Of a DNA stretch of 64,000 bases, positions 7,501 through 40,844 are shown one piece after another. How positions within the stretch are numbered: position 1 is the stretch's first letter; every line of letters starts with the position of its first letter. Location: positions 4,790 through 68,789 of the forward strand of contig JBGQJU010000012.1 in the NCBI GenBank assembly GCA_041499185.1, in the 5' to 3' direction. This stretch comes from Pyrinomonadaceae bacterium. Its GTDB lineage: Bacteria; Acidobacteriota; Blastocatellia; Pyrinomonadales; Pyrinomonadaceae. The notes under the pieces are model-generated. The model was not told where the DNA came from. It saw nothing but the letters and a program-made list of their open reading frames with translations, and did no database searches. The position numbers were made by a program, and so were the translations under genes.

Positions 7501-10500
7501 ATGGTTCCGCCAGGCTCGAGTCATGGAGTTAGGGTGTCAAAAGAAATCTGGTTAGGTCCGCTGCTTGGCAACAATCGTTCGCGTTTGGTCGAGCGCTGCG
7601 CCGATCTTGTCTCACAAAACAAGGCTAACAGCTTTCTGTATCTCGCCGCTTCTCATCCGCTGCTGGAGATCGTCACGCAAGGTATTCTTGATGGTGAAAA
7701 TAATCGCGGCGTTTGGGGCGAGTTGCCCGTCTATCTCTTTCGTGGTCTTGTCAGGCGAATTCTTTCAGCTGCTATTGACGAAAGTGGGCAGACGCTTACA
7801 CCACGCGTTCCGATCGACCAAGACGAGCTGCCGCTAAGACGAAGTTTGATCTCGCAGATTCTGGCGCGTCTGATGGGTACGGGCAAACTGAAAGCAATCG
7901 CCCCGCTCGCCTATCGCGAAGGATGCATCAATACGATCGCGACGCTGATTGGCGAGATCGAGCGGGCCGCCAAGTCACCCGCCGAAGTTACAGCGATCAT
8001 CGCGGCCCGCACCAATGACCTTGCACCACAAACAAGTGCGACGAAGCGCGGCGTTCATACGCAGATTGATTTCGATAAAGAGGTCGCGCTGATCTACTCG
8101 ACTTATTGCGAGTTGCTGAATCGGCATCGGCTCACCGAAGCAGACGCGGATAGTTTGCGCGCTCTCTCAGTTCTCAACGGCGAGCTTGACGGGCAAAAGG
8201 TACAAATCTCAGCGCTGGCCGATGTGCAACTGCTCGTGCTCGATGGCTTTTTTGACTTCACGCCGGTGCAGGGCGAGATCTTGCGTCGGTTAGTTCCCCG
8301 GATTCCCAAGGTAATCGTCAATCTGAATCACGACGAGCGCAATCCGGAGATCTTTCTGCCGTTTCAGGAAACCATCGAGCATATTTCGTCCGTCGCGCCT
8401 TTTGAGAAAAAGTGGAGCGGCTATAAGAACATCGCTCTTACACGCGGCGCTCTCTCGGGTCTGCGGGAAAACTTGTTCAATCCCTCACTATCTACCGAGC
8501 AACAACCCGAAGACCCTGGGAGCGGGGAGGCAGTCGAGATCCGATACTTTGAATCTGGTGATCGCGATACCGAGATTCACGCAGTTGCCAAAGAGATCAA
8601 ACGGCTCGTCCTGCGTGAAGGTTACAGTCTGGCGGACGTCGCGCTTGTCGTACGTCAGCGCGCGTCGTACGCCGACACGATCGCTCGCGTGATGCGCGAA
8701 GAATCGCTGCCCTGCAATCTGGAATCAAGGATTGTAGCCAACGACATTCCCGCCAACCGCGCAGCGCTCAAACTGTTTGCGATTCTCGAGCAGCTTTCGC
8801 GTGACGAAATCACTACTCCGAAAGTTTCCGCGCTGGCCGACCTGATCAAGTCGGAATACTTCCGTCTGAGCGAGGAAGATCTGAGCTCACTTTTGTCGAA
8901 GTTCAATGCCGAGCACTCCGGGCTGTTGCGGGAAAGCGATCAAACGCCTGACGCCAAACGCGAAGCACAACTAAAAAATCGTTACCGCATCGGTGTGTGG
9001 GACGCGGACTCACTTGAGAATACGTTCGCCTATGTAGGCAGCGAACTGCGCGTGAGCGAGTGGCTAAACCGCGCCCGCCAACTGATAAAAGAACTTCCCG
9101 CCGCCGCCGCAACCAAAGAACTTCTGAACATCGACACCACCGAGCAAGCGCGCGATCCGGACGAGGCCGACCAGATCGAGAACGCCGAAACGGCAAAGGT
9201 TGAGAGTGCGGACGTCGAGAAGAAGCGTCGCCCATCGCGCGACATCCATCCCGCAGCGATCGCCTGGGCCTCGCTCGTGATTCAAAGTTTCGCCGAGCGG
9301 ATACAAGCCATTTCCCGCGAAGGCAAGCCTGCCGATTTGCGTCTGGCGTTGATGAAATTGCTCGATCACTTCTGTTTTCGCGAGCAAATTGCAAAGCCAA
9401 TCAGGAGTGCAGTTCAAGACCGCGAACTCCCGCTAGCAATGCTCAACTTCAATAGTCTCGAATCCCTGCGTCGCGCTTTTGTGGCGACCATCAAGAGTAT
9501 CGAGATCGCCGCTGACATCGGGTCAGAACCACCTGCGGTAGCGGGTGGGTTTAATGCGGCAACAACAACCAGGCTCGCAACTTTCATTGAAGAGGTGCGT
9601 CGTTGCCTCGGCTCGCAGTCGCAACTGTTTGGCGCCAGGGATGCGCGAGGCCTGCGCGTGCTCGAAGCAACGGACGTGCGTGGACTGCGCTTTCGCGCCG
9701 TCTTCATCGCGGGATTGGTTGAAGGTGGATTTCCCTTGCGTGCTTCGCGTGACTGGATCTACCCGCATGAAGAGCGCGAGCGGCTGAAAGTTTACGGCCT
9801 AACGCTGGAAGATATTTCGCCGGCGACGCTTTTGAAAGAGGAACACTATTTTTATCAGGCAGCGTGTCGCGCCACCGAACGGCTCTACCTCAGCCGCCCG
9901 CTATTGTTGGAAGACGATTCTGAAACCGTCGCCTCTTATTATATCGATGAGCTGCGGCGTGCCGTCGCGCCACTTAAGATTGAAGCTGAGACGATTCGTC
10001 GCGATTACGACGCCAAGAACCTGGAGGAAGTCTCAACCACGAGCGAACTGGATGTCGCGTTGGTGCGCCAGCAAGAGAGGCACATTCATCGCGGCGAGAA
10101 ACGGGAGTTACTGCCACAGCCACGCATCAAGCGAATGCTGACCCTGGCGCGCAACGATGGTTTCCTGAGCGACTCCGCCTTGCGGCGCATCGAAATCGAG
10201 CGCGAGCGCGCCAGTCAATCGTTTGGACCTTACGACGGCGAGATCACCGATCCGCATCTGATTGCCCTGCTGAACCAGAGATTCGGTCCGAACTTTGTGC
10301 ATAGCGCGAGCGGCCTGAGTGTGTATGGCAATTGCGCGTACCGTTTCTTTGCCCAGCGAGTATTGAAGTTGGAGCCGCGTGGTGAAGCGGCGCTCGATCT
10401 GCAAGCGATCGACGCGGGCAAGCTGCTGCACGACATTCTGCGGCGTTTCTTCGAGCAGCATCGACGCCAGCCGCTTTATAAATTGGATCGCGAAGCGCTG

Positions 10501-11271
10501 CAAAAAGAGCTGCGCGATCTGGCGGACGGAGTCTTCAACGAACACGAGCGAGTCGTGCCGCCGCTGAACAAACAGATCTGGAAGATCGATCGCGAGATTC
10601 GCAAGATCCTGCTGGATCAGGTGCTTTTGTATGAGCTGGAGATGCAAGAAAAGGCTGCTGCTCATGGAGTCTTGCCGGCGTATTTTGAGGTCGCGTTTGG
10701 CGGTATGAAATCCACGGCGAGAGATCCTCACTCGAAAGATGAACCACTCGAGCTGACTCGTTCCACCTTCGTCGGCGAAGAGACGATCAAGATCAGCGGT
10801 CAAATCGATCGCGTCGATATTGCCGGCGACAACACGCTCATCGCCTATGACTACAAACTGTCAACTGGATCCACCAAAGACGACATCAAGTCGGGCCGCA
10901 GTCTGCAGCTTCCCATTTATCTGGAAGCTTTGGAGAAATTGATACTCCCGCGTCACACGATCGCCGGTGGCGGCTACTACGTGATACGCGGCGGCAACGA
11001 CCGCCGGAATAAAGGACTTCATCGCGCGAGCGCGTTGGATTACTCCGGAATCAGTGCTCGAGCGGGCGCCGTCATTGCCGATGACGAGTGGCAGCAGATT
11101 CGCGACGAAGTGATCGCGAAGATCTGGGATTTTCTAGATCACATGCGCGCCGGGCAGTTCGTGGTAAATCCTTCCGAGAAGGAAAAGACATGCCGGTTCT
11201 GCGATTTTGCGGCGGTGTGCCGATATGACCGGTATCGGATTGAGAGGAAGAAGCGAAGAGATGACGGTTAG
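7501..11271 (+). CDS. addB: AddB-like helicase-nuclease subunit (inactive helicase-like N-terminus, C-terminal PD-(D/E)XK nuclease with Fe-S cysteines)
   Basis: Size 1256 aa with no Walker A at the N-terminus. C-terminal nuclease motifs GNCAYRFFAQRVL, IDRVD, AYDYK, and CRFCDFAAVC (C...CxxCx5C). Lies in a locus with an AddA-like gene. Confidence 0.8.
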   Translation: MVPPGSSHGVRVSKEIWLGPLLGNNRSRLVERCADLVSQNKANSFLYLAASHPLLEIVTQGILDGENNRGVWGELPVYLFRGLVRRILSAAIDESGQTLTPRVPIDQDELPLRRSLISQILARLMGTGKLKAIAPLAYREGCINTIATLIGEIERAAKSPAEVTAIIAARTNDLAPQTSATKRGVHTQIDFDKEVALIYSTYCELLNRHRLTEADADSLRALSVLNGELDGQKVQISALADVQLLVLDGFFDFTPVQGEILRRLVPRIPKVIVNLNHDERNPEIFLPFQETIEHISSVAPFEKKWSGYKNIALTRGALSGLRENLFNPSLSTEQQPEDPGSGEAVEIRYFESGDRDTEIHAVAKEIKRLVLREGYSLADVALVVRQRASYADTIARVMREESLPCNLESRIVANDIPANRAALKLFAILEQLSRDEITTPKVSALADLIKSEYFRLSEEDLSSLLSKFNAEHSGLLRESDQTPDAKREAQLKNRYRIGVWDADSLENTFAYVGSELRVSEWLNRARQLIKELPAAAATKELLNIDTTEQARDPDEADQIENAETAKVESADVEKKRRPSRDIHPAAIAWASLVIQSFAERIQAISREGKPADLRLALMKLLDHFCFREQIAKPIRSAVQDRELPLAMLNFNSLESLRRAFVATIKSIEIAADIGSEPPAVAGGFNAATTTRLATFIEEVRRCLGSQSQLFGARDARGLRVLEATDVRGLRFRAVFIAGLVEGGFPLRASRDWIYPHEERERLKVYGLTLEDISPATLLKEEHYFYQAACRATERLYLSRPLLLEDDSETVASYYIDELRRAVAPLKIEAETIRRDYDAKNLEEVSTTSELDVALVRQQERHIHRGEKRELLPQPRIKRMLTLARNDGFLSDSALRRIEIERERASQSFGPYDGEITDPHLIALLNQRFGPNFVHSASGLSVYGNCAYRFFAQRVLKLEPRGEAALDLQAIDAGKLLHDILRRFFEQHRRQPLYKLDREALQKELRDLADGVFNEHERVVPPLNKQIWKIDREIRKILLDQVLLYELEMQEKAAAHGVLPAYFEVAFGGMKSTARDPHSKDEPLELTRSTFVGEETIKISGQIDRVDIAGDNTLIAYDYKLSTGSTKDDIKSGRSLQLPIYLEALEKLILPRHTIAGGGYYVIRGGNDRRNKGLHRASALDYSGISARAGAVIADDEWQQIRDEVIAKIWDFLDHMRAGQFVVNPSEKEKTCRFCDFAAVCRYDRYRIERKKRRDDG

Positions 11272-22028: not shown

Positions 22029-24659
22029 ATGAAGATAACTAAACAATCCACCACCATAACGTGGCTGACAAGCTTGGCGCTGTTGGCTTCGTTATTTGTG
22101 AATAGCCCCGCGAGCACGGTTAGAAACGCTCGACTTGCCCAACGCGCCACTGCCCGACAAGATGGCAGGCCCGCTGATTCAGCGCTCTCGCGCTACGCGG
22201 TAGACCTGACCAAGTTGGCGCGCGCCGGCCAGCTCGAAACTGTTAAGCGTCACAAAGCAGAGCTTAACCGCATCGTCAGTATTCTCTCTGAGGATCCGCA
22301 GCATAACCCGGTGCTCATTAACGAGTCAGGCGCCAGCGATCAGTTTGAGATCGCGGCGGGCCTGGCGCGAGAGATCATCTCAGGCCCAGTGCCGGAGGGC
22401 CTGCTGAATAAGCAGGTCTTTAGTCTGAATCTCGAGGCACTGTCGGCTGGCGCGAAAGACACCAGCGAGTTTGCTGCTCGCTTGCAGGCGATCTTGACCG
22501 AAGCCGCAGCCGCGGAAGGTGAGATCATACTTTTCGTCGATCAGCTTCATCAGTATGTAGGTACTTACGCAAATCAGGTGGCCTCGGCAGCCATACGTGA
22601 CGCGCTCAAGCAAGGCCAGTTGCGCGTGGTGGGCGCGGCTACATCTGACGCCTATGCCACATACATTTCTGGCGACGAATCGCTGACCAGTCTCTTCCAA
22701 ACAATTCGTATCGGCGACGAGATCGCTAAGGGCTCAGAGTCCGGCAAACGTGGCCTATCCGAAAACGAAGAGAGCGATACCGACGACCAGGCGTTTGTTG
22801 GTGACAAGGTTTCCGCAGACCTGCGCGCATTGATGCAGAGCGCGAGTTCCGCCAACGATCACGTCGGCGTCATTCTGCAAGTGGATGACGTGAGAAATGC
22901 GGAACTGGCCTCGCTGCTGAAGCGCAATGGCGTCTTGATCAACAATCGCATGGCGCAGCTCGGCGTGCTCAAGGTTCAGGTTCCCGTCAAAGCGATTGAA
23001 GAGCTGGCTGGCAGCAATTTGACCAACCACCTTTCACCAGACAGAGGGCTCGAGTCCTTTGGTCACATTACAGCTACGACCGGAACTGATCAGGTGCGCA
23101 CGCAGAGCATTGGGTCCATCATCAATGGCGTGCCATTACTCAGAGCCCTTACGCTTGACGGCACAGGTATTGGCATCGCCGTGCTCGATTCCGGCATTGA
23201 CAAATCACACGTGACCGTCAACGGCTATGTCACGTTTAGGAAAGACTTCACGACTGAGAATCTGCTCGACATAGATCCATATGGTCATGGCACGCACGTG
23301 GCTTCAGCTGCTTCCGGCCTCAGCACAGATACCAACAATACGTACCAGGGTATCGCCCCCGGTTCCAGTCTCATCAACCTGCGTGTGCTGAATTCTCAGG
23401 GAACAGGCAGCACGTCCACTGTGCTAAGCGCGCTCAACTGGATTCTCAGTCCGGCTGATCCGACCAAGCCGTTGAGTTCGACGAATCCGCTTAACAAAGA
23501 CAAGTACAACATTCGCGTCGTCAACCTGAGTCTCGGCGCCTCAGCAGTCGATTCTTATAAGAATGATCCGCTCTGCCGCGCGGCGCGCGCATTGGTGGAC
23601 GCAGGAATCGTCGTCGTGGCCGCCGCTGGTAACAACGGCAAGGACGCCAATGGCAACAAGATCTATGGCCAGATACATTCGCCTGGCAACGAGCCTTCGG
23701 TCATTACCGTTGGAGCTGTCAACACGTTCGGCACGAACGTACGCAGCGATGACGGCATTGCCACCTATAGCTCCCGCGGTCCGACGCGAAGCTATTACAC
23801 GGACGCGAACGGAGTGAAACACTATGACAATCTGGTCAAGCCGGATCTGGCCGCGCCCGGCAACAAGCTAATCTTTGCTGAAGCTGACAATGGCAAGGGC
23901 GGTCTGAATCTCCTTGTTACGCAACATCCGGAATTGGATGCCGATGTTTCTGAGTCCGATAACAAGCGGATGATGTACCTGAGCGGCACATCAATGGCGA
24001 CGCCAATCGTTGCCGGCACAGCTGCTCTATTGCTGCAAGCCAATTCAAAGCTGACGCCGAACATGGTTAAGGCGCTATTGATGTACACCGCACAGCCAAT
24101 TAAGGGCTTCAATATGTTGGAGCAGGGCGCCGGCGAGCTGAACGTTGAAGGCGCGGTGCGTGTGGCGAAGCTCGTGCGTACAAACCTGTCGTCGTCCACA
24201 CCGGCCGGTGATCCCTTCTTGACTACGAGCACAGCTCCGACTCCACAGACAACCATCGCTGGTCAGACTTTCACCTGGTCGCAGGGTTTGATCCTGAACT
24301 ACGACTACGCGACCGGCGTTAATCTCATCATGAAGTACCAGAAGATTTATGGTCTGGGCGTCGTGATGGGTGATGGCATTCTGGTGACCGATTCGACCTG
24401 CACGCTTAATGGCACAATGATGTCGGACGGCGTAGTCATGGGCGACAACATCATGACCAGCAACGGCGTAGTCATGGGCGACGGTTTGCCGTTCCTTGCA
24501 ATCGGCCAACTGCTTGGTGATGGAGTCGTCATGGGTGATGGTGTCGTAATGGGCGACGGCGTAGTCATGGGTGACGGCGTCGTAATGGGTGACGGCGTAG
24601 TTATGGGCGATGCCGCCGTACAAGCCATGGCATCTAACGCGATGATCTTTGGCGACTGA
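22029..24659 (+). CDS. secreted S8 subtilisin-like protease with an N-terminal degenerate ClpB-NBD1-like module, an I9-like propeptide and C-terminal (GDGVVM)n repeats
   Basis: Signal peptide. ClpB-like block YAVDLTKLARAGQLETV...NPVLINESGASDQ...VPEGL...ILFVDQLH...LKQGQLRVVGAATSDAY. Catalytic triad contexts VLDSGID, GHGTHVAS and SGTSMATP. Confidence 0.85.
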   Translation: MKITKQSTTITWLTSLALLASLFVNSPASTVRNARLAQRATARQDGRPADSALSRYAVDLTKLARAGQLETVKRHKAELNRIVSILSEDPQHNPVLINESGASDQFEIAAGLAREIISGPVPEGLLNKQVFSLNLEALSAGAKDTSEFAARLQAILTEAAAAEGEIILFVDQLHQYVGTYANQVASAAIRDALKQGQLRVVGAATSDAYATYISGDESLTSLFQTIRIGDEIAKGSESGKRGLSENEESDTDDQAFVGDKVSADLRALMQSASSANDHVGVILQVDDVRNAELASLLKRNGVLINNRMAQLGVLKVQVPVKAIEELAGSNLTNHLSPDRGLESFGHITATTGTDQVRTQSIGSIINGVPLLRALTLDGTGIGIAVLDSGIDKSHVTVNGYVTFRKDFTTENLLDIDPYGHGTHVASAASGLSTDTNNTYQGIAPGSSLINLRVLNSQGTGSTSTVLSALNWILSPADPTKPLSSTNPLNKDKYNIRVVNLSLGASAVDSYKNDPLCRAARALVDAGIVVVAAAGNNGKDANGNKIYGQIHSPGNEPSVITVGAVNTFGTNVRSDDGIATYSSRGPTRSYYTDANGVKHYDNLVKPDLAAPGNKLIFAEADNGKGGLNLLVTQHPELDADVSESDNKRMMYLSGTSMATPIVAGTAALLLQANSKLTPNMVKALLMYTAQPIKGFNMLEQGAGELNVEGAVRVAKLVRTNLSSSTPAGDPFLTTSTAPTPQTTIAGQTFTWSQGLILNYDYATGVNLIMKYQKIYGLGVVMGDGILVTDSTCTLNGTMMSDGVVMGDNIMTSNGVVMGDGLPFLAIGQLLGDGVVMGDGVVMGDGVVMGDGVVMGDGVVMGDAAVQAMASNAMIFGD
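24516..24605. repeat. five tandem 18-bp coding units (GDGVVM); degenerate copies extend back to about 24352
   Basis: The units ggtgatggagtcgtcatg, ggtgatggtgtcgtaatg, ggcgacggcgtagtcatg, ggtgacggcgtcgtaatg and ggtgacggcgtagttatg differ only at synonymous positions. Confidence 0.9.
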
Positions 24660-28822: not shown

Positions 28823-29473
28823 TCACGATTCTGTTTTTAGGTGCCGAGTAGTTTGCTCGGTCACTGACGAACCGGCGCGCAGCTCGGTCTGGAGATCGGA
28901 AGTCGTCGGCGAGCGAAACAATTCTGGCGGAGCTGCGCTCGGCAGTAATTGAGGCGCGCTTGCAACGTCCAAAAGGTTCTGCGACTGGGCGTCTAACGAG
29001 CTATCCTTCAATCCCTTGCGTGGTCGCGTAAACCGTACGCCGTTGAACACCAGGCCCAGACCTATTAAGAAAGTGATAAAAGCAAGTCCGAGCACCATTG
29101 TGATCAACATGGCGACGTCGTCCTTGTGCGTAAAAGTCAGAAGCACTAGCGCACCTATGCCTGCGCCGAGACCGGACGATGCCGTAATCACTCCCGCGCG
29201 CATCCGGCGTAAACGTCTCTCTTCAGGCGATTCGAGGAATTTTTCGATCTGCGGCAGTACGTCTTCAGCGACTCGCTTCAAATCTTCGGCGTCTTCAACT
29301 TCACGAATTTTCTCAGCCACCGCACGGCCGATATCCTCGCGCGCAGTCGCGGCGGATGCCGTGATCGAATCCGGCCGCTCAAGGCTGGCTCGCACGGGCC
29401 GCAGGTCCGTGCCGCAGGCGCGGCAATATTGACTCATCTGGCGTTCTTCGGAACCGCAGTCTGGGCAGTACAT
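28823..29473 (-). CDS. zinc-ribbon membrane protein
   Basis: N-terminal YCPDCGS...YCRACG ribbon and two TM helices (GAGIGALVLLTF, MLITMVLGLAFITFLIGLGLVF). Confidence 0.65.
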   Translation of the reverse strand: MYCPDCGSEERQMSQYCRACGTDLRPVRASLERPDSITASAATAREDIGRAVAEKIREVEDAEDLKRVAEDVLPQIEKFLESPEERRLRRMRAGVITASSGLGAGIGALVLLTFTHKDDVAMLITMVLGLAFITFLIGLGLVFNGVRFTRPRKGLKDSSLDAQSQNLLDVASAPQLLPSAAPPELFRSPTTSDLQTELRAGSSVTEQTTRHLKTES

Positions 29474-32225: not shown

Positions 32226-35200
32226 CTATGTGGCAGCGCCATCGAGACTGTTCAAGAGCCTTTCCAAAACCTGCGGAAAATTCTTGATTGAAGACAGCGA
32301 TTTCAGTTGTTCGCGCGAGCGTTCAGTTAGTTCTTCAGCACTGAAGAAGAATCGGGTCACTCCAATCAGGGCTGGAAACTCCAGGCTGAGGATCGACAGA
32401 TAGTGCTCGACGGTTTCACTGAGCAGGAACATATGTATTCTTTGCCGTACCTCGGTTCCCAAACAATAACCAATATAGTCAAGCGGCCCAAACGCAACAT
32501 ATTCCCCATGTTCGAGTTCGCGCCTAGCTTCATCAGTCTGCCTGACTACACATCCCGGTTGTCCGACATAATCCATTGCTCGAGCGTCCGGGAAACTGTT
32601 AATCACGCTCTCCAGCGGCGCTTGGATCCAGAGCTCGTCCGGGGCAAGGCCGTCAACCGGCGCCAGCTTTTCGTCGTTGAACTGGATTTGAAAATCATCC
32701 TGGCCGATTGTATCGCTCTCCGCGACTACGATTTGTGGAATGATTATTCCGAACGTGTTGAAAGCAAAAGCTTGAAAACCTGTCAGAGCCGGGATTAGTT
32801 CTTCCCGGTTTACGGTTGTCTGGTTGCTGAGGTAGAACGTGACGGATTCTATGCCTGGGGCAATCTGCTCCGCCGCCGGCGCCTGAGATTCCGTTGCTAC
32901 CGCACGATCACCCTCAACTCCAGATTGAGCTAACTCCGCACAAAGTTGGGCCACGTTGACGATGGATTCACCCTTGGCCAGTACCTCTTTGAGTTTTAGC
33001 GTCAGTTTGTGCAGTTGGTACGGATCATTCCGTGTTTTCACGCAGTTCTCTGTTTCGCATTGGTCAAGGAGGTTCGCGGCCTCCTGATGGCCGCACAGTT
33101 TGTCGAGGTAGGGAATCAAAGCGAGTTCGATGCGCTGGGCGAATTCCTCTTGCGGATCATCCTGATCAACTGCCAGTTGGCCGTATGAAACCGACTGATC
33201 AATGACCTGAATCTGATAGTTCGCCTGGGGATCCGGAACTTCAATCGGTGAGAAGTTCAAAGACGGGACGAATAACCCATGTTCCCGCAGAATGTGCTCG
33301 CGCAACGCGGCGATCTTTTTCACGAATTCATCCGAGAGATCTGTACCTTCCGGATTCAGGATGACCGCGGCCAGATCGCTCCCCACAGAGATACGGATCG
33401 GATTGTCCTTCGGATCCAGTGCCAGAACGATCGGTCCGCATCTTGTAACCAGCTTGCGCTTGCGCTCGAGCCGGTCCACTTGATCGGACAACTCATCCAA
33501 TTGACTCGCCCAGGCTTCGATGCTCTGTGCGCGTTCCAACGCGGAATGCGCGTCCTTCAGTGCACGATCAAGCAATTCGATCGGATTTGGCGAGGTTGAG
33601 GCCACTTGTTCGAACGCCAGCGCGCGGTTCCATGGGTAGCGAGGAGAGGCGCTCCACAATCGCTCTGCTTCAGTATAGCAGTTCACGGCTTGCTCAAACT
33701 GACCTTGCGCATAGAGGAAGTTGCCTTCGTCGTTATAGGATAGCGAGGCTTTAGTTTCATATTCCTGCTGATCGCCATCCAGGTCAAAAGCGACTTTCAA
33801 ATGTTCGCGTGCCTCCGCCCAACGTTTCAAAGGACCATATACCCCCGCCAGGTTCGAGTGGTAGACCGCCTGTTTATTGTCTGAGTTGATTGCGTTCAAA
33901 TAGTGTTGAGCCGCCTCTTCATATTTCTCCTGAATGAAACAGACGTTGCCCACTCGATTCTGATAGACAGCCTCAAACGACTCGCCCTCAATGTCGCGCA
34001 TTTGCTTGAAGAGTCCCAGTGCTTCTTCCATCTTGTCTTGTTTCTGATAGTACTCGTCAGCCAGCTCCAGCAAGGCGTCTTCGGTGCTGCCATCGAGCTT
34101 CAGCGCTTCCAGCAAGGCGGCTTCCGCCGCCTCAAACTGTCCCAGCTCTCGCCGCATCTGAGCGATTCGGGACAGCATGCTTGTCTGCAACTCAGGTTGT
34201 TTCTGTCCTACTCGAGCATACCAGTCGGCTGCCTCGGCCCACTGCTCTTGCCGCTCGCATAGTTGACCCATTCCCCAATAACCGTTATACGCGTCCGGGG
34301 CTACCTCGATTGCTTTAGTGAATGCTTCGTGGGCACTTTCAAACTTGCTGTTACCTTCTTCAAGATACGCAAACCCTTTCCACGTGTAGGCGTCTAGTCT
34401 GTCGGGTTCCAGCTCAACCGCCTCCTGGTATTTGGCCTGCGCGGTATCGAAACGTTTGCTGGCCAGATAGGCATCGCCAACGTCCAGGTAGACTCTGTAT
34501 TCGCCCGTTTCGTCAACGGCGGCCGCGCGCTGCGCAAGTGGCATTATGTGCGATTCGTATTTCTCGATGAACTCAGGCCGGCCATACAAACGCAAGAGGC
34601 GTGTGTAGCCTAAGCTGTCGCCGCCGATCTTGTTGATTGCTTCCTGATACCAGGTCCTTGCTTCTTCCGGCTTGCCTTGCTTGTCCACAAGGTCGCCCAG
34701 ATAGATGTAGCCTTCAACCTCGTCCGGAGCGGCCGCCAAAGACTTGTCAAGGTAGCTTCGGGCGGTTTCAAAATCGGTTTGTTGCAGATAGTAATCGCCC
34801 AAAGCGGCGATGATGCGGCCGGTGCCGGGCGCGAGTGCGTCCGCCTGTTGCAAGAGTGACAAAGCGCTCTCCGGCTGCGGAAAGTAGTACAAGTGGATCT
34901 GCGCGGCGGTTATCAGGAGCCGGGCGCGTGTGTTCGAATGCAGAAACTCCTGTCCCGAGAGGTACGGAAAGAACTGATACACTTCGGTCCAGCGCTCGTG
35001 CAGTATCAAGCGAGTGGCGCTCTTAAAATCGTGTGGGCTTCGAAATTGTTCCGGAAATGGCAGCGATAAGTCGACCAGGCTTTGCGCTAACGTTAGTCGC
35101 CAATAGCAGAGCGCTTCTGCGAAGGTCCGCAACCACTCGCGCCAGCCAAGATCGGCATTGCGCTCGAACAGTTCGCGCAGCCGGCGCTCTTGCTGAGCGA

Positions 35201-35720
35201 AGAGTTGTTGTTCGAACCAGGTGCGCAGTTTAATCAGCGCCGGCCGCAGCGACGCTGGATCGGCAGAGCCGATCTCTTCACTCAACAGTTTCCAGATTCT
35301 TAGAGCATCTCGTTCCGTCAGAAAAGAGCTGCGTATTTGCTCGAGCACACGCGTAGCCTCTCGCATGTCGGCGTCCTTGGCCGCCACCTGGTGATAAGCC
35401 TCCGCCAACTGCTCCGTGACCGGGGGACGAGAAGCTTCGAAAGCAACTACGAGGGGAACGCCCGGAGTCGGTTGGGTCTCGGTCGGGATCGATAGCGGGG
35501 CTGCTTCGGCGGGCGATCCAACGGACGTTGCTTGAGTTGGTTCTTGACGATAGCCGCAGCGCCCACATCTGCCGATGGTGCGCGACATCAGCTTGCCACA
35601 GTTTGGGCACGGCCCGAGTTCTTGCGCGCATAAATCGCATTTGGATTGATCAGGGGATACGAAACCGGCGCAAAGCGGATTGGGGCAGGGGATTCGTTCT
35701 AGAGCGGTTGCTTCCGTCAT
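32226..35720 (-). CDS. large soluble protein: N-terminal double zinc ribbon + TPR array + two C-terminal FlhA/FHIPEP-cytoplasmic-domain-like modules
   Basis: IPCPNPLCAGFVSPDQSKCDLCAQELGPCPNCGKLMSRTIGRCGRCGY. Many TPR-like units (AxxxYxxAlxlxP). The C-terminus resembles FlhA-C: IRISVGSDLAAVIL...IAALREHILREHGLFVPSLNF...ANYQIQV and GHQEAANLLDQ (compare Salmonella FlhA GRQEAQQLLDR). No TM segments. Confidence 0.65.
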   Translation of the reverse strand: MTEATALERIPCPNPLCAGFVSPDQSKCDLCAQELGPCPNCGKLMSRTIGRCGRCGYRQEPTQATSVGSPAEAAPLSIPTETQPTPGVPLVVAFEASRPPVTEQLAEAYHQVAAKDADMREATRVLEQIRSSFLTERDALRIWKLLSEEIGSADPASLRPALIKLRTWFEQQLFAQQERRLRELFERNADLGWREWLRTFAEALCYWRLTLAQSLVDLSLPFPEQFRSPHDFKSATRLILHERWTEVYQFFPYLSGQEFLHSNTRARLLITAAQIHLYYFPQPESALSLLQQADALAPGTGRIIAALGDYYLQQTDFETARSYLDKSLAAAPDEVEGYIYLGDLVDKQGKPEEARTWYQEAINKIGGDSLGYTRLLRLYGRPEFIEKYESHIMPLAQRAAAVDETGEYRVYLDVGDAYLASKRFDTAQAKYQEAVELEPDRLDAYTWKGFAYLEEGNSKFESAHEAFTKAIEVAPDAYNGYWGMGQLCERQEQWAEAADWYARVGQKQPELQTSMLSRIAQMRRELGQFEAAEAALLEALKLDGSTEDALLELADEYYQKQDKMEEALGLFKQMRDIEGESFEAVYQNRVGNVCFIQEKYEEAAQHYLNAINSDNKQAVYHSNLAGVYGPLKRWAEAREHLKVAFDLDGDQQEYETKASLSYNDEGNFLYAQGQFEQAVNCYTEAERLWSASPRYPWNRALAFEQVASTSPNPIELLDRALKDAHSALERAQSIEAWASQLDELSDQVDRLERKRKLVTRCGPIVLALDPKDNPIRISVGSDLAAVILNPEGTDLSDEFVKKIAALREHILREHGLFVPSLNFSPIEVPDPQANYQIQVIDQSVSYGQLAVDQDDPQEEFAQRIELALIPYLDKLCGHQEAANLLDQCETENCVKTRNDPYQLHKLTLKLKEVLAKGESIVNVAQLCAELAQSGVEGDRAVATESQAPAAEQIAPGIESVTFYLSNQTTVNREELIPALTGFQAFAFNTFGIIIPQIVVAESDTIGQDDFQIQFNDEKLAPVDGLAPDELWIQAPLESVINSFPDARAMDYVGQPGCVVRQTDEARRELEHGEYVAFGPLDYIGYCLGTEVRQRIHMFLLSETVEHYLSILSLEFPALIGVTRFFFSAEELTERSREQLKSLSSIKNFPQVLERLLNSLDGAAT

Positions 35721-35741
35721 GTCAGCTTTAACTATAGCGTG

Positions 35742-37310
35742 TTAGTTTCCCTTTGTTCCGCGATCCGGTATGACAATCGTCGCGGTTGGACTCTGTTCGA
35801 GCAAGCTTGGTGGTGCCGTCGCCGGTGCGGCTTCGACGAGTGGTTGTATGGTCTGTGCTTGTGTTCTCTCGGGTGTGGTCCACCCGCTGGTTGCCACGCC
35901 AGCGTTTTTTCTTTCGCCCAGACGAAAGCCACACTTGCCACACTTGCCGATCTTTTGGGACATCAGACGATGTACGCTGCTTTTCTTGCAGTTAGGACAT
36001 TCGATCAAAGGATGCTCGCAGAGCACACACTCAACACAGTCAGGCTCGATCGAGCCCTTGCATTCTGGATTGGGGCAGGGAATTTTCTGAGTAGGATCGA
36101 ACGCGCCAGACTTGGGCGGAGGTTTCGGCGGGATTTCGATGATGGGCTTCTCGCTCTGCAGGTAAACGACCGGCGTGCCGAAGCGCTTGTCACTCCAACT
36201 TCCTTTACCTCCATATTCCGGCAGACCCAAAGCGGCACGGCCTTTCCTTACAGCTTCGTCTACATCGCTGCCCGTCCCAAGCTCCTCGTAAAATACCTTC
36301 GCAAAGACCGCGGCAACCTCTGGCTTAATCGTGTACTGCATAGCAATCACGGCGGGGACTTTGGCCCCGGCGAGCTCGCGCGCTAGATCGGAAAAGCCTT
36401 CCAGCGTGTCGGACTTCGCGCCTTCGCAAGCGTGAAGAAATACGAGTCGAGGCGGCGGGTCGTCAGAGAACAGATCGCAAATCGTTTGGCTGTTGTACCA
36501 GGCTGCTTTTGGCGGCAACTTATTCTGTTTCCTCTGTTCGCATTCTTCCTCGGTCATCTGCAAGGCGAGACCGAGTTTCTTGTCACCGTGGCCGATGAAA
36601 TGAACGATGTGCGGTTTGAATGCCTCTTCACCGGGCTGCTCCGGTTCGTTGATCGCGTCTTTGAGTTCTGCATAAGTCGGGTTGTTGATTTCCTTGACCT
36701 TCACTTGCGAATCCGGTTGCTCGAGCGCCTTTATTGTCTCGATAGCGTCTTTCGTCTCCTTCGTGTTGAGGTCGTCCAGATCGTAGTCATTCGGGTTAGA
36801 AAACACTATCAGAATACGCAGCTCTTTCTCTTTTTCTCCGAGTCGGTGTTCGACGTCCGGCATGAACCGAGCCAGAATTAACTCTGGGTTCTTGCCCGCG
36901 AGGAAAAACCCCTTGCGCTCCTCTTTCTCCGGCGTCTTCTGCCGCAGCGGCATGTACAGAAATTCCCACGGATAATTCGCCAGCTCTCCCGCAGCTTTAT
37001 GAAAGACCAATGTTAATCGCAAACGGCTGCCTTTCTGGTCCGGGCGCATAACAAAATCGTAGTTGCCTTCAAACTCATCGCGAATGTCCGATTGGGGTGG
37101 GAACAGGAGATCGTAAAGACACAAACCGAGCAGCTCCAGATCGTCGCGCTCGTTCAACCGGTCACTGCTGACCCAGTAGTTGAAACGCCTGAGCAACCTT
37201 TTGTCCAGTTCCGAGACGCGAATCTTCCCAGGCCGCGGCTTGTTGAAGACGTCGTGATAAACGACCTCCTCTTCGTTCTTCAGCTCGATCTTGCACGTGT
37301 AGACGGGCAT
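35742..37310 (-). CDS. CHAT-domain caspase-like protease with a C-terminal double zinc ribbon
   Basis: Catalytic dyad contexts HIVHFIGHGD and LVFLHACEGA. C-terminal IPCPNPECKGSIEPDCVECVLCEHPLIECPNCKKSSVHRLMSQKIGKCGKCGF. Confidence 0.8.
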   Translation of the reverse strand: MPVYTCKIELKNEEEVVYHDVFNKPRPGKIRVSELDKRLLRRFNYWVSSDRLNERDDLELLGLCLYDLLFPPQSDIRDEFEGNYDFVMRPDQKGSRLRLTLVFHKAAGELANYPWEFLYMPLRQKTPEKEERKGFFLAGKNPELILARFMPDVEHRLGEKEKELRILIVFSNPNDYDLDDLNTKETKDAIETIKALEQPDSQVKVKEINNPTYAELKDAINEPEQPGEEAFKPHIVHFIGHGDKKLGLALQMTEEECEQRKQNKLPPKAAWYNSQTICDLFSDDPPPRLVFLHACEGAKSDTLEGFSDLARELAGAKVPAVIAMQYTIKPEVAAVFAKVFYEELGTGSDVDEAVRKGRAALGLPEYGGKGSWSDKRFGTPVVYLQSEKPIIEIPPKPPPKSGAFDPTQKIPCPNPECKGSIEPDCVECVLCEHPLIECPNCKKSSVHRLMSQKIGKCGKCGFRLGERKNAGVATSGWTTPERTQAQTIQPLVEAAPATAPPSLLEQSPTATIVIPDRGTKGN

Positions 37311-37357
37311 TCTTTATCACCTTATTACCTTTTCAACGCCGACGTGGCCATCAGTAT

Positions 37358-38455
37358 TCAGTCCAGGATCGCGACCGACTTGCGTCTAACACGATCGAGC
37401 CGCTGGCTGATGCCTCGCAGTTCAGTGTCCGCGTTGATCAGTTCTTCTTGCTGTTCGCCTCCCATAACGGCGCTCGAGGCCTGAACCTTTTTGTGGTTGC
37501 TTTCCATCAGCGCGCGACATTCGTCCGCCAACGCGTCGGCCTGAGTGGTAACAAGATCGGGACTCAAGGACATCATTTGACAAAGCGTAGTCCAATTAGC
37601 TTGCGCGCTCTTCCATCTCTCTCGGTCCTTCGTCCACGACTCCGCCAGTGCGACTTTCCATTGCCCATAGAACGAAAGCTTAGTGAAGTCATCGCGCTTT
37701 GTCGTTTGTCTGATGCTGTAAAGGACATAGTTGGCGGCCGTAAAAGCGGTGGCCGTTTCAAGCGAATCGCCGAAGAGCAACTCGTTGTTTTTGACCCACA
37801 ACTTGTTCACGTCAATCTTGACGTTGCCGGAGTCGATTAAAGCAAAGTAGCCGGGCCCAAAGTCATCGACCGGATCAAATTCTTTGCGCAAACCGATGAT
37901 TGGCTGATTAGTCTCATCGCCGGCGACCACGTCCACAACTGTTTCGACTAAAGCGTCGGCGATCTTGATGTAGGTTGCCAGCGCCTGTGAAAAGTCGAGC
38001 ACTGAAGCAACCTTCTCGATTACTTTCAGCAGCTTCTTTGCCAGATCGTCGCGCCTGACCTGATAAAGCAGAACGGTCAGTTTCAAGCCCCCGCCCTTGT
38101 ATGGATGTATGCCGGCGACCTTGGTGTCCGAGAATACAAAACCTGATGGCAGCCTTATCTTGTCTTTCTCCAGCAAGCTGGGCCCAACGACGAAAGGCAC
38201 AACCATCGTCTCTTCGTTGTAATCGAACTCGGATACGACAAGCGCCATGGGCGCGTACTCGGTCCAGAGTTGCCGTTCGTACTTTATGAAGATCTGATTC
38301 ACCCTGACTACGAAGTAGTGTTCATCTCTCCGAAAGGCCTCTCCCAATTTCCGGTCAACATGACTTTGCGGGACAGGGTAATGAGTAGGCAGAATCGCCG
38401 GACTGTGTTGGACCCCGTCCCAGAAATCGCTCCACCAATCTCCTAACGTCGGCAT
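37358..38455 (-). CDS. hypothetical protein (365 aa), first gene of the CHAT operon
   Basis: Long ORF with coding-like composition, 47 bp upstream of the CHAT gene on the same strand. I recognise no family motif. Confidence 0.65.
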   Translation of the reverse strand: MPTLGDWWSDFWDGVQHSPAILPTHYPVPQSHVDRKLGEAFRRDEHYFVVRVNQIFIKYERQLWTEYAPMALVVSEFDYNEETMVVPFVVGPSLLEKDKIRLPSGFVFSDTKVAGIHPYKGGGLKLTVLLYQVRRDDLAKKLLKVIEKVASVLDFSQALATYIKIADALVETVVDVVAGDETNQPIIGLRKEFDPVDDFGPGYFALIDSGNVKIDVNKLWVKNNELLFGDSLETATAFTAANYVLYSIRQTTKRDDFTKLSFYGQWKVALAESWTKDRERWKSAQANWTTLCQMMSLSPDLVTTQADALADECRALMESNHKKVQASSAVMGGEQQEELINADTELRGISQRLDRVRRKSVAILD

Positions 38456-38861: not shown

Positions 38862-40844
38862 TTACTGCCCGCGCCGGAAGAAAACGCGGGGACCGAAACC
38901 ATTGTTAATCGCCGCGGCCTCGGGAACGCCAAGCACGTTTCGCACGATGGTCAACTGCGCGAGGATGCGTGGTTCGGCAAGCTGGAATTTATTCGCCGTG
39001 GTCTGCGCGCGATCGAAGTCGATCTTCGCCAGCCTGGCTAGTTGTTGCCCGTATTGCGATACCATTCCCCCCAGATCGCTGCCGCCATGCATTGGTAACT
39101 CGCCATCCTTGAAAATATCCACTTCGAAACCGCTGAGTAGGGCGGCGGCAGAGAGCAGCTCATTAAGCTGCGCGATGCCCGGATCGAGCACTTCGAAACT
39201 GCGCGCCGGTTCCAGCGCCGCAAACGCCTGCGCCACTCTGAGTTGCTGCTCGAATTGCTGATAGTTTATGGCGTGGCGATTTGTGAGACGCTGCGCTTCG
39301 CCCAGAAACTTCACCGCGAGTTTGGTGTCGTTCTTTTGCGCCATCGCGGACAACAGCAATAACAGATCGATGCGCTCATCGTCCGAACGCAAACTTGCAA
39401 GCGTCTGTCGCAACTGATCGTTGTTTTCAGTCTCGACCTTTTGCGCCATCACCTGAAAGTCTACCTTTTGCAGCACGGCGTCGCGCGTCGCGGAATCAAG
39501 ATGGTCATTGGCGATCTGACGAGCGCGGTCCACATTGCCTTCGTCAAGCGCTTTTTGCGCGGCCTGCTGATAAAGCCTCGACTGAAGCGGTGGTGGCGCG
39601 GTGGGCGCGAGGGCCAGAAGGCTGTCCGCGGTTCCCTGCTGCATGAGACTATTGAGCTGATTGAAGGCCTGTCGCGGATTATTGCCCATACCGATCTCGG
39701 TCATTTTGTTGCGCACCGCAGTCGCCCGAGAAGGAAGATATTGATCAATCTGTGGCAGCAGTGCTTGCAACCCCGACAACAGTCGTCGCGCGTTTTGCTG
39801 CTCGATCTGTCCGTCAGTGGGTGTGCTTTGATCGGTATTCTGTGCGCCACCAAAATTGCCTCGGCCGCGAGCATTGTTTGGGCCTCGCTGATTGTTGGCT
39901 GGCGGCGGTGTGGCCCTCAGCGCCGCATCGATTACCGTATTCATCAAATCCTGGAAAGATGATTCGCCGAGTACGGGGGTTCCCGCTCGATACGCGATCG
40001 CCTGGTTCGACGCCGGTTGATTCGAGCCAGGTTGATTTGACGCCGCCTGGTTCGCAACTGCCGGCGTGCCGTTTGTGGCAGTTTGTGCGGGTCGCGGCCC
40101 CGGTCGCAAAAGATTCAACGCCAGATTTTCCGCCTCTAAGTTGGCGAGCATATTCTCCGACTGCAACTTGCTTACTACTTTCGCCGTCAGTTTTGTGGCT
40201 GCTTCATTGTCCTGAATCTGTAGCTCGGCGAGCACCTGGCTCAGGGTGCTTGGGTACTGGCCTTTCGCCAGCGCCTCTTCGGTCTTTTGCGCCGCCAGCT
40301 TTGGATCGATCGCGGCCACTCGCGCCAGCAGACTCTGCTCCAGATTGGCGTCGAAGTTTGGCCGGCGGAAATTATTGCCGGTGTCGGGTGTGGTTGTTAA
40401 CGAGCGGGTCACCGCCAGCAGTTGATAAGCCAGGGGCGCATCGTGCTGCGCCGCGGTCATCACCAACTCCTGCCGCAACTGAGCCGCCCAGCGCTGCATA
40501 TTGCCATCAGTGTTTCGCATCATCTCAGCGACGCCGTCGCCGGCAAGAGAGAACAGCGAACGCGCACGCGCCTCGCTGCGCTTCCACAAGAGGTCCGCCG
40601 CCGTGATCTGAACGCGGATGCGATTCTCAGGCAGCTTGAGCGTCTGCGCCTGATCGAGAACCTGATCGAGCAACGCGACCGCCTTCTTTTCCGCGGCCTC
40701 CTTCGCCTTCTGCTGCTCTTCGTCCGTCTGTTGCGTGGTTGGCGATGGCTGGGTCGCAGTATCCTGCGCCGCGACCGCTGCGGCAGCGCCAAGGATCAAC
40801 GATAGTGCGACAAGAAGACGGGCAAGTCTTACCTTTATCATCAT
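38862..40844 (-). CDS. secreted alpha-helical repeat protein with a Q/N/P-rich linker (function unknown)
   Basis: Signal peptide MMIKVRLARLLVALSLILGAAAAVAAQD. The low-complexity centre NQAASNQPGSNQPASNQ is flanked by helical-repeat regions. Confidence 0.65.
   Translation of the reverse strand: MMIKVRLARLLVALSLILGAAAAVAAQDTATQPSPTTQQTDEEQQKAKEAAEKKAVALLDQVLDQAQTLKLPENRIRVQITAADLLWKRSEARARSLFSLAGDGVAEMMRNTDGNMQRWAAQLRQELVMTAAQHDAPLAYQLLAVTRSLTTTPDTGNNFRRPNFDANLEQSLLARVAAIDPKLAAQKTEEALAKGQYPSTLSQVLAELQIQDNEAATKLTAKVVSKLQSENMLANLEAENLALNLLRPGPRPAQTATNGTPAVANQAASNQPGSNQPASNQAIAYRAGTPVLGESSFQDLMNTVIDAALRATPPPANNQRGPNNARGRGNFGGAQNTDQSTPTDGQIEQQNARRLLSGLQALLPQIDQYLPSRATAVRNKMTEIGMGNNPRQAFNQLNSLMQQGTADSLLALAPTAPPPLQSRLYQQAAQKALDEGNVDRARQIANDHLDSATRDAVLQKVDFQVMAQKVETENNDQLRQTLASLRSDDERIDLLLLLSAMAQKNDTKLAVKFLGEAQRLTNRHAINYQQFEQQLRVAQAFAALEPARSFEVLDPGIAQLNELLSAAALLSGFEVDIFKDGELPMHGGSDLGGMVSQYGQQLARLAKIDFDRAQTTANKFQLAEPRILAQLTIVRNVLGVPEAAAINNGFGPRVFFRRGQ

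Follow-up and report, generated by a model that had tools for sequence, protein, structure and literature searches.

An unannotated protein family linked to caspase-fold proteases and swappable sensors: a candidate protease-gated conflict module in bacteria and archaea

Introduction

What might a caspase-fold protease do when its gene stands between that of a protein of no recognised family and that of a protein combining a repeat array with domains akin to part of a protein-export gate? This question is raised by three genes, hereafter g1, g2 and g3, of a Pyrinomonadaceae bacterium (Acidobacteriota). They are located in a stretch of 64,000 nucleotides (NCBI GenBank assembly GCA_041499185.1, contig JBGQJU010000012.1, positions 4,790 to 68,789 of the forward strand), which we analysed as a whole and call the window. 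A preliminary description, made from the sequence alone, had proposed that the three genes form an undescribed protease-based conflict or signalling system. Here, we report that g1 represents a large family whose members are found next to caspase-fold proteases in various bacteria and archaea, together with exchangeable putative sensors. On balance, we lean towards the view that g1, g2 and g3 make up a conflict module gated by a protease, comparable in kind to abortive infection or programmed death.

Results

The g1 family is widespread and lacks annotation

A word-indexed search yielded 82 clusters of full-length g1 relatives of ~350-370 residues, at 31-79 % identity, none of which harbours a Pfam domain. 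They include proteins from Acidobacteriota, Thermoanaerobaculia, a Hodarchaeota metagenome-assembled genome (MAG) and an uncultured archaeon. Using an exhaustive HMMER profile search over 1.84 billion representatives, we collected 1,470 proteins at E<=1e-3, 1,070 at 1e-10 and 497 at 1e-30, the 1,470 matches being clusters at 50 % identity. The best 150 of them are all between 220 and 416 residues long, with no fusions. A scan with one genome per species identified 44 g1 loci, distributed across Acidobacteriota, Chloroflexota, Cyanobacteria, Bacteroidota, Verrucomicrobiota, Planctomycetota, Pseudomonadota, Actinomycetota and archaea.

As anticipated in the preliminary description, which recognised no family for g1, we found no match for this protein in Pfam, NCBIfam or PADLOC. 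The models of Pfam and NCBIfam gave no accepted match in 55 diverse members of the family either, even at E up to 1. The 365-residue protein might have turned out to hit a housekeeping family, as the same description allowed; no Pfam, NCBIfam or PADLOC profile matched it or these 55 relatives. In RefSeq and UniProt, g1 relatives (for instance WP_116978243.1, WP_367585155.1, WP_188965438.1, WP_094535840.1 and WP_126390657.1) are listed as "hypothetical" or uncharacterized, and their neighbours are named by domain ("CHAT domain-containing", "Novel STAND NTPase 1 domain-containing"). A candidate death-effector domain in g1 (Pfam DED, E=0.02 over 19 residues, 3 of the 55 members) was dismissed as noise.

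Caspase-fold proteases are constant neighbours of g1

We searched the open reading frames (ORFs) of the g1 loci with pieces of the g2 and g3 proteins of the window and with our own hidden Markov models of CHAT and C14 peptidases, and also compared the neighbouring proteins with Pfam. A caspase-fold protease (CHAT or Peptidase_C14) adjoins g1 in 41 of the 47 distinct loci outside the window. The six loci without a protease gene (L009, L026, L034, L035, L038 and L050) are truncated contigs.

In 29 loci, a g2 orthologue is encoded directly downstream of g1. A third gene that shares the N-terminal domain and/or the tetratricopeptide repeat (TPR) region of g3 follows in 24 of those; four of the other contigs end earlier, and the remaining locus, L049, has an unrelated third gene. 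With residues 71-280 of g3 as the query, phmmer matched the third gene in 23 of the 24 loci (E from 2e-78 to 3e-5, apart from the window's own duplicate loci), and the third gene of L028 matches the TPR part only.

Other loci combine g1 and a protease with different partners. Four have the gene order CHAT-like, nSTAND1 (~1,000 residues), g1; their proteases, with motifs FGHSD and FLNAC, are CHAT-like according to hhalign (prob 98.3 %, E=1.8e-14). Two loci have a gene for a CHAT-NB-ARC-TPR protein before g1, or a CHAT gene directly upstream of it (L012). Peptidase_C14 partners are found in six loci. The C14 gene adjoins g1 in L013, L014 and L022, is followed by a STAND NTPase gene in L017 (g1, C14, STAND NTPase), and codes for a C14-EAD7 protein downstream of NACHT-HEAT and g1 genes in L020. 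In L018, on a Pseudanabaena plasmid, the order is MoxR-like AAA, CHAT/EF-hand/C14 protein, g1 and C14. By gene content, the constant core is g1 plus the protease, and the third position is that of a swappable, predicted sensor.

We also identified distant g1-like genes, at 23-29 % identity, on three plasmids. In Rhizobium sp. TH2 pTH2a (L054, 2883-8143), genes for a GAF-GAF protein and a CHAT protein precede the g1-like gene, which in Sporomusa termitida pSPTER (L053, 5823-8023) is preceded by a gene for a papain-like C1 peptidase. In Prosthecochloris aestuarii pPAES01 (L052, 6980-9527), it is followed by genes for two unknown proteins. These plasmid loci hint that the g1 family may work with non-caspase proteases as well.

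The pairwise identity matrices of g1, g2 and g3 across 23 triads are correlated, with r=0.85-0.87, a value reached in 0 of 2000 Mantel permutations. The genes flanking the module are unrelated between loci, indicating that the cassette moves as a unit. Together, the linkage and the co-varying distances show that the g1-g2-g3 unit is real and inherited together, and it is very likely that the three genes are one functional unit. The proposal of a single protease-based system thus gained support from the protease beside g1, from the exchange of the sensor and from these correlations; the compositional island that accompanied it did not survive (see below).

g2 and g3 are a CHAT protease and a multidomain TPR protein

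g2 matches the Pfam CHAT model PF12770 over residues 65-359 (E=3e-19, 69.9 bits for a cut-off of 24) and PADLOC SAVED_CHAT (E=1.8e-6). The His/Cys dyad recognised in the preliminary description resides in the motifs HFIGHG, from residue 237 (His241), and FLHACEGA, from residue 291 (Cys295). Across 13 diverse orthologues, H237, G240, H241 and C295 do not vary, and the motifs of the dyad recur in the CHAT-like partners at loci of the nSTAND1 type. Judging from its sequence, g2 is a CHAT protease with a conserved dyad and should be protease-competent. Most CHAT partners of the g2 type also have its zinc ribbon. The JGI label of g2, "ribosomal protein L37AE/L43A", is a mis-annotation that stems from this C-terminal ribbon (Pfam L37ae E=0.07).

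The composition of g3 first proposed, zinc ribbons, a TPR array and two FlhA-C-like modules, is borne out by the positions of cysteines and by Pfam, PDB profile and hhalign matches. Profiles of the first and the second module built from g3 orthologues (A3, residues 740-955; A4, residues 956-1164) match PDB entries of type III export-gate proteins, namely SsaV (5.5e-5), FlhA (5e-4) and EscV (8e-4) for A3, and InvA (7e-11), FlhA (1.6e-8) and EscV (2e-8) for A4. The modules are homologous to each other according to hhalign (prob 91 %, E=1e-6), with a gap of ~50 columns. NCBIfam FlhA matches residues 772-853, and Pfam FHIPEP is above its cut-off (E=3e-10) for residues 971-1158, which correspond to profile positions 349-533 of 657, in the cytoplasmic part. 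g3 orthologues form 27 clusters, nearly all with a precomputed PF00771 assignment; a word-index search with the g3 C-terminus gave a single, uninformative match.

Not all third genes have the FlhA-C part, which is thus optional. We found it in the window and in L006, L007, L008, L021, L023, L024, L027, L029 and L032, with a single module in L023 (model positions 332-654, E=4e-30). The g3 orthologues of Bacteroidota and others have longer TPR arrays only, some of them matching Pfam TPR-S (PF20308). P0280, an orthologue of 1386 residues that aligns with 60 % of the g3 query at 48 % identity, has no FHIPEP match and has PF00959 (phage lysozyme) among other precomputed Pfam matches, which suggests that the C-terminal module of g3 may be replaceable.

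The C-terminal zinc ribbon of g2 and the N-terminal one of g3 are 52 % identical (E=8e-19). Third genes harbour such a ribbon only in the window clade (L006, L008) and, independently, in L049, from an Actinomycetota MAG. The third gene of L049 codes for an unrelated 962-residue protein with no Pfam match, yet its ribbon matches that of the CHAT protease at this locus: the two (~10250-10420 and 10591-10790) are 43 % identical to each other (E=7e-13). In g3 orthologues without a ribbon, the conserved N-domain stands at the N-terminus. Homotypic adaptors that come in pairs, known as the "EAD principle" (Kaur et al. 2021), offer a parallel, and these observations suggest that matching zinc ribbons might dock the protease onto its sensor.

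g1 is predicted to consist of a β-sandwich with an inserted hairpin and a helical C-terminal domain

An AlphaFold2 model of g1, generated with 55 sequences, has a predicted local distance difference test (pLDDT) score of 81 and a predicted template modelling (TM) score of 0.79. The N-terminal helix harbours W7, W8 and W12 and has a hydrophobic moment of 1.54; the family consensus is MxxLxxxWxxxW, with Trp kept at positions 8 and 12. In the model, the β-sandwich comprises ~11 strands between residues 24 and 251, and its sequence contains the conserved motifs VPFVVGPSLLE, VAGxHPYxGG, PGYFALID and ADYVLYSI. The inserted hairpin consists of an amphipathic helix (135-149) and a hydrophobic one (159-178, mean Kyte-Doolittle hydropathy 1.39), with a tip of pLDDT<50 at residues 149-156, whose L153-D154-F155-S156 sequence is semi-conserved (L in 36, D in 41, F in 43 and S in 37 of the 55 members). 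At the junction that precedes the C-terminal helical domain, R254-x-D256 is near-invariant, with R254 and D256 each present in 54 of the 55 members. The linker before the last helix, residues 331-350, is by contrast variable, with an entropy of 2.6-2.9 and gaps of 35-47 %. Alignments with the plasmid-encoded relatives extend at most over residues 23-351, two of the three ending by residue 309, and the β-core aligns best. An effector held in check by autoinhibition would be expected to show such a pattern, with a conserved N-terminal core and a divergent C-terminus.

Foldseek searches of the PDB with the N-domain model gave C2 domains as consistent best analogues. The top one is a Trichomonas C2 domain (9zk3_B, prob 0.97, TMt 0.52, E=1.5e-2), and others belong to PLC-δ, PI3K, Aida, MCTP2 and dysferlin. 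In BFVD, the only significant structural match to full-length g1 is an uncharacterised 323-residue protein of Hokovirus HKV1, A0A1V0SF49 (E=1.5e-7, prob 1.0, TM 0.45-0.50, 8 % identity), and a mimivirus phosphatidylserine decarboxylase matches the sandwich (E=1.7e-3). We rejected two other identities for g1. That of a gasdermin is ruled out by Pfam, PADLOC, a PDB profile search and Foldseek on two models. That of a pentameric ligand-gated channel-like protein came from the top full-length Foldseek matches, which have TM ~0.2 and E>=4e-3; moreover, the C-terminal helices are hydrophilic.

Operon layout and genomic setting

The coordinates of the ORFs agree with the initial account of three co-directional genes on the minus strand, with spacings of 47 bp between g1 and g2 and 21 bp between g2 and g3 (Table 1). 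A GGGAGG ribosome-binding site is found upstream of g1, and a promoter and terminator scan gave no signal above chance. As first stated, the operon holds no STAND NTPase or CRISPR component: g1, g2 and g3 have no Walker A motif and no NTPase Pfam match, and no CRISPR array, tRNA or Rfam match is present across the window. A tandem-repeat scan of the window revealed nothing relevant to the operon.

Table 1. Features of the g1-g2-g3 operon (window coordinates; aa, amino acids)
Feature	Coordinates	Strand	Description
g1	37358..38455	-	ORF, 365 aa; family without annotation; predicted latent effector and substrate of the adjoining protease
g1 residues 4-16	38408..38446	-	Trp-rich amphipathic N-terminal helix (LGDWWSDFWDGVQ); helix in both models
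g1 residues 20-262	37670..38398	-	β-sandwich core, most conserved region; weakly C2-like
g1 residues 135-178	37922..38053	-	Helical hairpin inserted in the sandwich, from the secondary structure of the models
g1 residues 263-365	37361..37669	-	C-terminal helical domain (helices 263-364); candidate autoinhibitory part
g2	35742..37310	-	ORF, 522 aa; CHAT protease of clan CD (caspase fold); double zinc ribbon at the C-terminus and a tail rich in Pro, Ala and Thr
g2 catalytic dyad	36426..36590	-	His241 (36588-36590) and Cys295 (36426-36428), from motif positions
g2 residues 413-468	35907..36074	-	Double zinc ribbon; Cys 412/417, 425/428, 438/441, 457/460
g3	32226..35720	-	ORF, 1164 aa, soluble; built of the parts listed in the rows below; predicted to act as sensor and as scaffold for assembly
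g3 residues 8-58	35547..35699	-	Double zinc ribbon, paralogue of the g2 one; may act as a homotypic adaptor
g3 residues ~100-280	34881..35423	-	Conserved helical N-domain without Pfam model; signature of the third gene in g1-CHAT loci
g3 residues 282-690	33651..34877	-	TPR array; Pfam TPR_2 E=4e-30, TPR_11, TPR_16 and others
g3 residues 740-955	32856..33503	-	Coiled-coil linker, then first SctV/FlhA-C-like module, without SD2-like insert
g3 residues 956-1164	32229..32855	-	Second SctV/FlhA-C-like module, SD1-SD3-like, no SD4 match

The preliminary description had given sampled lines of the operon about 47 % GC, against about 60 % in the flanks, and had called the operon lower in GC. We measured 54.2 % in the operon, 55.6 % in the window and 55.4 % and 58.6 % in the flanks. 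Among sliding windows of 6.2 kb, the operon ranks at the 10th percentile, a deviation of roughly one standard deviation at most. GC at third codon positions is 0.61-0.65 in the three genes and 0.65-0.67 in their neighbours, and 60-nt lines at <=47 % GC make up 14 % of the operon compared with 12 % of the whole window. A lower-GC island or a recent transfer is ruled out by the overall GC values and by the neighbour-like third positions.

Two neighbours in the window were considered as members of the module and discarded. A 660-residue ORF (38862-40844, minus strand), 406 bp upstream of g1, has no Pfam match, and all its relatives, in a cluster of 6, are near-identical; every other g1 locus lacks this ORF, which is therefore probably not a member. 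A 216-residue protein (28823-29473, minus strand), encoded ~2.8 kb downstream of g3, harbours an N-terminal double zinc ribbon (DUF7577/DZR) whose likeness to those of g2 and g3 is generic CxxC (E=0.015). Farther away, a gene for an 876-residue S8 subtilase (22029-24659, plus strand) contains five copies of an 18-nt tandem repeat near its 3' end (24516-24607). S8 peptidases also flank the Rhizobium g1-like locus, possibly by coincidence.

At other loci, a reverse transcriptase gene (L005, 2295-3743) lies directly beside the CHAT-like/nSTAND1/g1 module and is among the few defence-type neighbours; it is very probably the source of the lone PADLOC Drt8 match (E=8e-59) in the pooled scan of the flanks. 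A DUF3467 gene is found a few kb from the module in two unrelated loci (L007, 15494-15835, and the P0079 neighbourhood), in one of which it adjoins a gene for a 1160-residue Peptidase_C70 protein.

Discussion

Our analyses establish the linkage of these genes, the identities of their domains, the conservation of the catalytic residues, the co-evolution of the three proteins and the swapping of the sensors. Bacterial gasdermins (bGSDM), encoded beside caspase-like/CHAT or C14 proteases, are licensed when cleaved and occur with many different sensors (Johnson et al., bioRxiv 10.1101/2021.06.07.447441). Licensing by cleavage also applies to EACC1, with a caspase-like Avs protease, and to Pepco, with a trypsin-like Avs protease (Evans et al., bioRxiv 10.1101/2025.11.14.688446). 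Following these experimental precedents, we propose that a similar mechanism could operate here. g3 would recognise a trigger through its TPR array and/or its tandem SctV/FlhA-C-like modules and would then self-associate; the C-domains of FlhA and SctV are ring formers. Its N-domain would recruit g2, helped in the window lineage by the matching double zinc ribbons, and g2 would be switched on, through its His241/Cys295 dyad, by proximity or by a conformational change. The active protease would cleave g1, a latent effector encoded immediately upstream, and free its N-terminal part (Trp-rich helix, C2-like β-sandwich and buried hydrophobic hairpin) from the C-terminal helical domain. The freed part might then attack the membrane and kill or arrest the cell.

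The trigger, oligomerisation, cleavage, toxicity, membrane target and defence phenotype are all features that we infer, and the steps of this model do not carry equal weight. g1 is probably a dedicated substrate or effector of the protease. Action on the membrane is put forward more tentatively, from a weak structural analogy and from hydrophobicity. As for the biological role, we give anti-invader defence an even chance.

A number of observations weigh against the proposed conflict module. The composition of the operon is native, and g1 has no transmembrane segment. Its C2 likeness is weak, as no Foldseek PDB match has E<1e-3 and TM ~0.5 is reached only by small-target normalisation. About half of the complete third genes lack FlhA-C modules, which therefore are not essential to the core mechanism. 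PADLOC, with which the preliminary description had meant the locus to be checked, gives no recognised system for the operon. That description had also asked whether the triad recurs in defence islands; the triad does recur, in the 24 loci described above, but 139 flanking proteins and 192 Pfam families, none of which occurs in more than three proteins, with a handful of PADLOC matches, show no defence-island enrichment. g1 relatives are absent from the IMG/VR viral contigs searched, so that carriage by phages is not supported. Finally, some caspase-like defence proteases act without a dedicated effector (bioRxiv 10.1101/2025.11.14.688446), and the description of type IV Thoeris points the same way.

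Such proteases raise the alternative that g2 does the killing itself, by breaking down a range of cellular or phage proteins, and that g1 is a regulator, either an inhibitor or pseudo-substrate that holds g2 inactive or an adaptor or bait through which the trigger is presented. g1 shows no recognisable enzymatic or pore-forming signature, and a β-sandwich with a helical domain could equally serve for binding. A bait is less necessary, however, where g1 remains in partnership with STAND NTPases that have sensor domains of their own. Furthermore, the constant size of g1 and its placement beside the protease mirror those of bGSDM, EACC1 and Pepco, and an effector under autoinhibition would fit the combination of a conserved N-core with a variable C-terminus. 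We therefore consider a regulatory role of g1 unlikely and retain that of a cleaved effector as the better account.

Considered as an effector-protease pair, the module resembles several described systems. As in bGSDM operons, the gene of a small or medium-sized protein without enzymatic character directly adjoins that of a CHAT or Peptidase_C14 protease, with TPR, NACHT or other repeat sensors, and autoinhibition is predicted to be released by cleavage near the C-terminus. Unlike bacterial gasdermins, g1 has no Pfam or PADLOC gasdermin match (E up to 0.1) and no PDB sequence-profile match, and no gasdermin figures among the top 50 Foldseek PDB matches of its full-length or N-domain model. It also lacks an N-terminal Cys, is longer (365 residues) and has a separate helical C-domain of ~100 residues.

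EACC1, Pepco, MBL and α/β-hydrolase modules similarly consist of a constant effector-protease pair with many sensors, including nSTAND1, and their effector gene is usually immediately upstream of the protease gene (bioRxiv 10.1101/2025.11.14.688446; Kaur et al. 2020/2021). In the window, the predicted sensor differs in being a separate protein without an NTPase. We compared g1 with ten effector families, MBL, α/β-hydrolase, Pepco, EACC1, PCaspase, bGSDM, CATASP, MPE, CalpT and Csx30, and it belongs to none of them. Its size and fold are incompatible with EACC1 (~115 residues) and Pepco (117 residues), and MBL, α/β-hydrolase and MPE are enzymes; CATASP, CalpT and Csx30 are set apart by the absence of profile and fold matches alone. 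No CATASP-like conserved small ORF was noticed at the loci, where no systematic search for one was made. The type III-E Craspase, in which TPR-CHAT Csx29 cleaves Csx30, also unites CHAT, TPR and a dedicated neighbouring substrate, a role that is predicted for g1. In our locus, by contrast, TPR and CHAT are on separate polypeptides, there is no Cas7-11, Cas neighbour or CRISPR array, and neither Foldseek nor profile searches relate g1 to Csx30. Finally, STAND/NLR defence systems (Avs, bNACHT) differ in their P-loop NTPase, absent from g1-g3 and present only in sister architectures of the g1 family. The absence of a described system with this combination, as first claimed, thus holds for every family that could be tested.

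CATRA calls for separate consideration, as the triad might be an instance of that system with g1 as a divergent component, in which case the FlhA-C decoration alone would be new; this possibility overlaps with our main reading and would affect novelty only. CATRA is cited as a "caspase-dependent ternary system", which fits the layout of a caspase, a TPR protein and a third protein. The TPR-S model, which some g3 orthologues match, is a sensor-type TPR family and presumably comes from the same body of work. Against this, even at E up to 1, neither g1 nor any of the 55 family members drew a match from Pfam or NCBIfam, libraries in which the presence of CATRA models is not established, and public annotation leaves g1 relatives hypothetical or uncharacterized though it names their neighbours. 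CATRA is also said to hold a variable "effector position" (GT4, cyclase), whereas g1 is unfused, as are its best 150 relatives, of 220-416 residues. Going by these citations, we consider it rather unlikely that the triad is an instance of CATRA.

The protease-gated module might also serve an endogenous signalling or death circuit (stress, development or kin conflict), like HetF-type CHAT proteases or the orthocaspases of multicellular bacteria, rather than anti-phage defence. The mostly housekeeping or metabolic flanks without a defence-island signal, the native composition and the lack of relatives in IMG/VR viral contigs are in keeping with such a role. The family is common in filamentous or multicellular lineages (cyanobacteria, Chloroflexota and Bacteroidota), a weak HetF match was obtained, and EACC1-DnaK fusions suggest stress inputs (bioRxiv 10.1101/2025.11.14.688446). 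Nevertheless, nSTAND1, NACHT, NB-ARC, EAD7 and MoxR-like AAA partner domains belong to described conflict systems, the distribution over bacteria and archaea is patchy and includes plasmids, and a Drt8-like reverse transcriptase adjoins one module. We judge a purely endogenous circuit to be quite unlikely and keep to a conflict function.

The two modules of g3 are homologous to SD1-SD3 of InvA, EscV, SsaV and FlhA, Pfam FHIPEP is above its cut-off and the TPR region is weakly similar to the SycD/LcrH and SctY chaperone families, but it is hardly credible that g3, with the genes around it, represents a decayed or auxiliary piece of the machinery for type III secretion or flagellar export, where it would dock substrates. 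Only positions 349-533 of the 657 of FHIPEP are matched; g3 lacks a transmembrane domain, shows no match to SD4 and is not set among secretion genes. No secretion or flagellar gene is annotated at ~22.0-32.1 kb or 38.9-47.2 kb, where the 660-residue and a 260-residue ORF have no Pfam match and some ORFs were left unscanned. The modules are in tandem after the TPR array, dispensable in many orthologues and missing from the third genes of Bacteroidota, and the constant neighbours are g1 and a CHAT protease. By sequence criteria, g3 shares a homologous domain with the FHIPEP family and is not a member of it.

We also entertain a broader reading, as yet doubtful, in which g1 founds a widespread, unrecognised family of proteolytically licensed death effectors and, in the window lineage, cytosolic, ring-forming SctV/FlhA-C domains have been exapted from type III secretion as an inflammasome-like platform, for assembly or sensing, coupled to the protease by zinc ribbons. 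g1 would then be a gasdermin analogue of unrelated fold, with a C2-like β-sandwich and a latent hydrophobic hairpin. Both bacteria and archaea would employ the family together with proteases that are mostly caspase-like and now and then papain-like.

The paradigm of protease-effector pairs as a whole is already established; what appears new here is the candidate effector family, the SctV-C-like decoration of the predicted sensor and the proposed zinc-ribbon coupling. We know of no earlier system built around a caspase in which the cytoplasmic domain of the type III export gate has been put to new use, here in tandem and without its membrane part. A mechanism of adaptor pairing that lends itself to testing is suggested by the two matching zinc ribbons. 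Gasdermins, EACC1, Pepco, MBL and other effectors gated by proteases represent an emerging dominant logic of prokaryotic immunity that directly parallels eukaryotic pyroptosis. The locus described here points to a further effector family, missed by profile libraries and by defence-finding tools and repeatedly adopted by the known sensor types nSTAND1, NACHT, NB-ARC and TPR. If g1 is indeed a membrane-directed toxin with a C2-like fold, it would represent a new structural solution for cleavage-activated killing.

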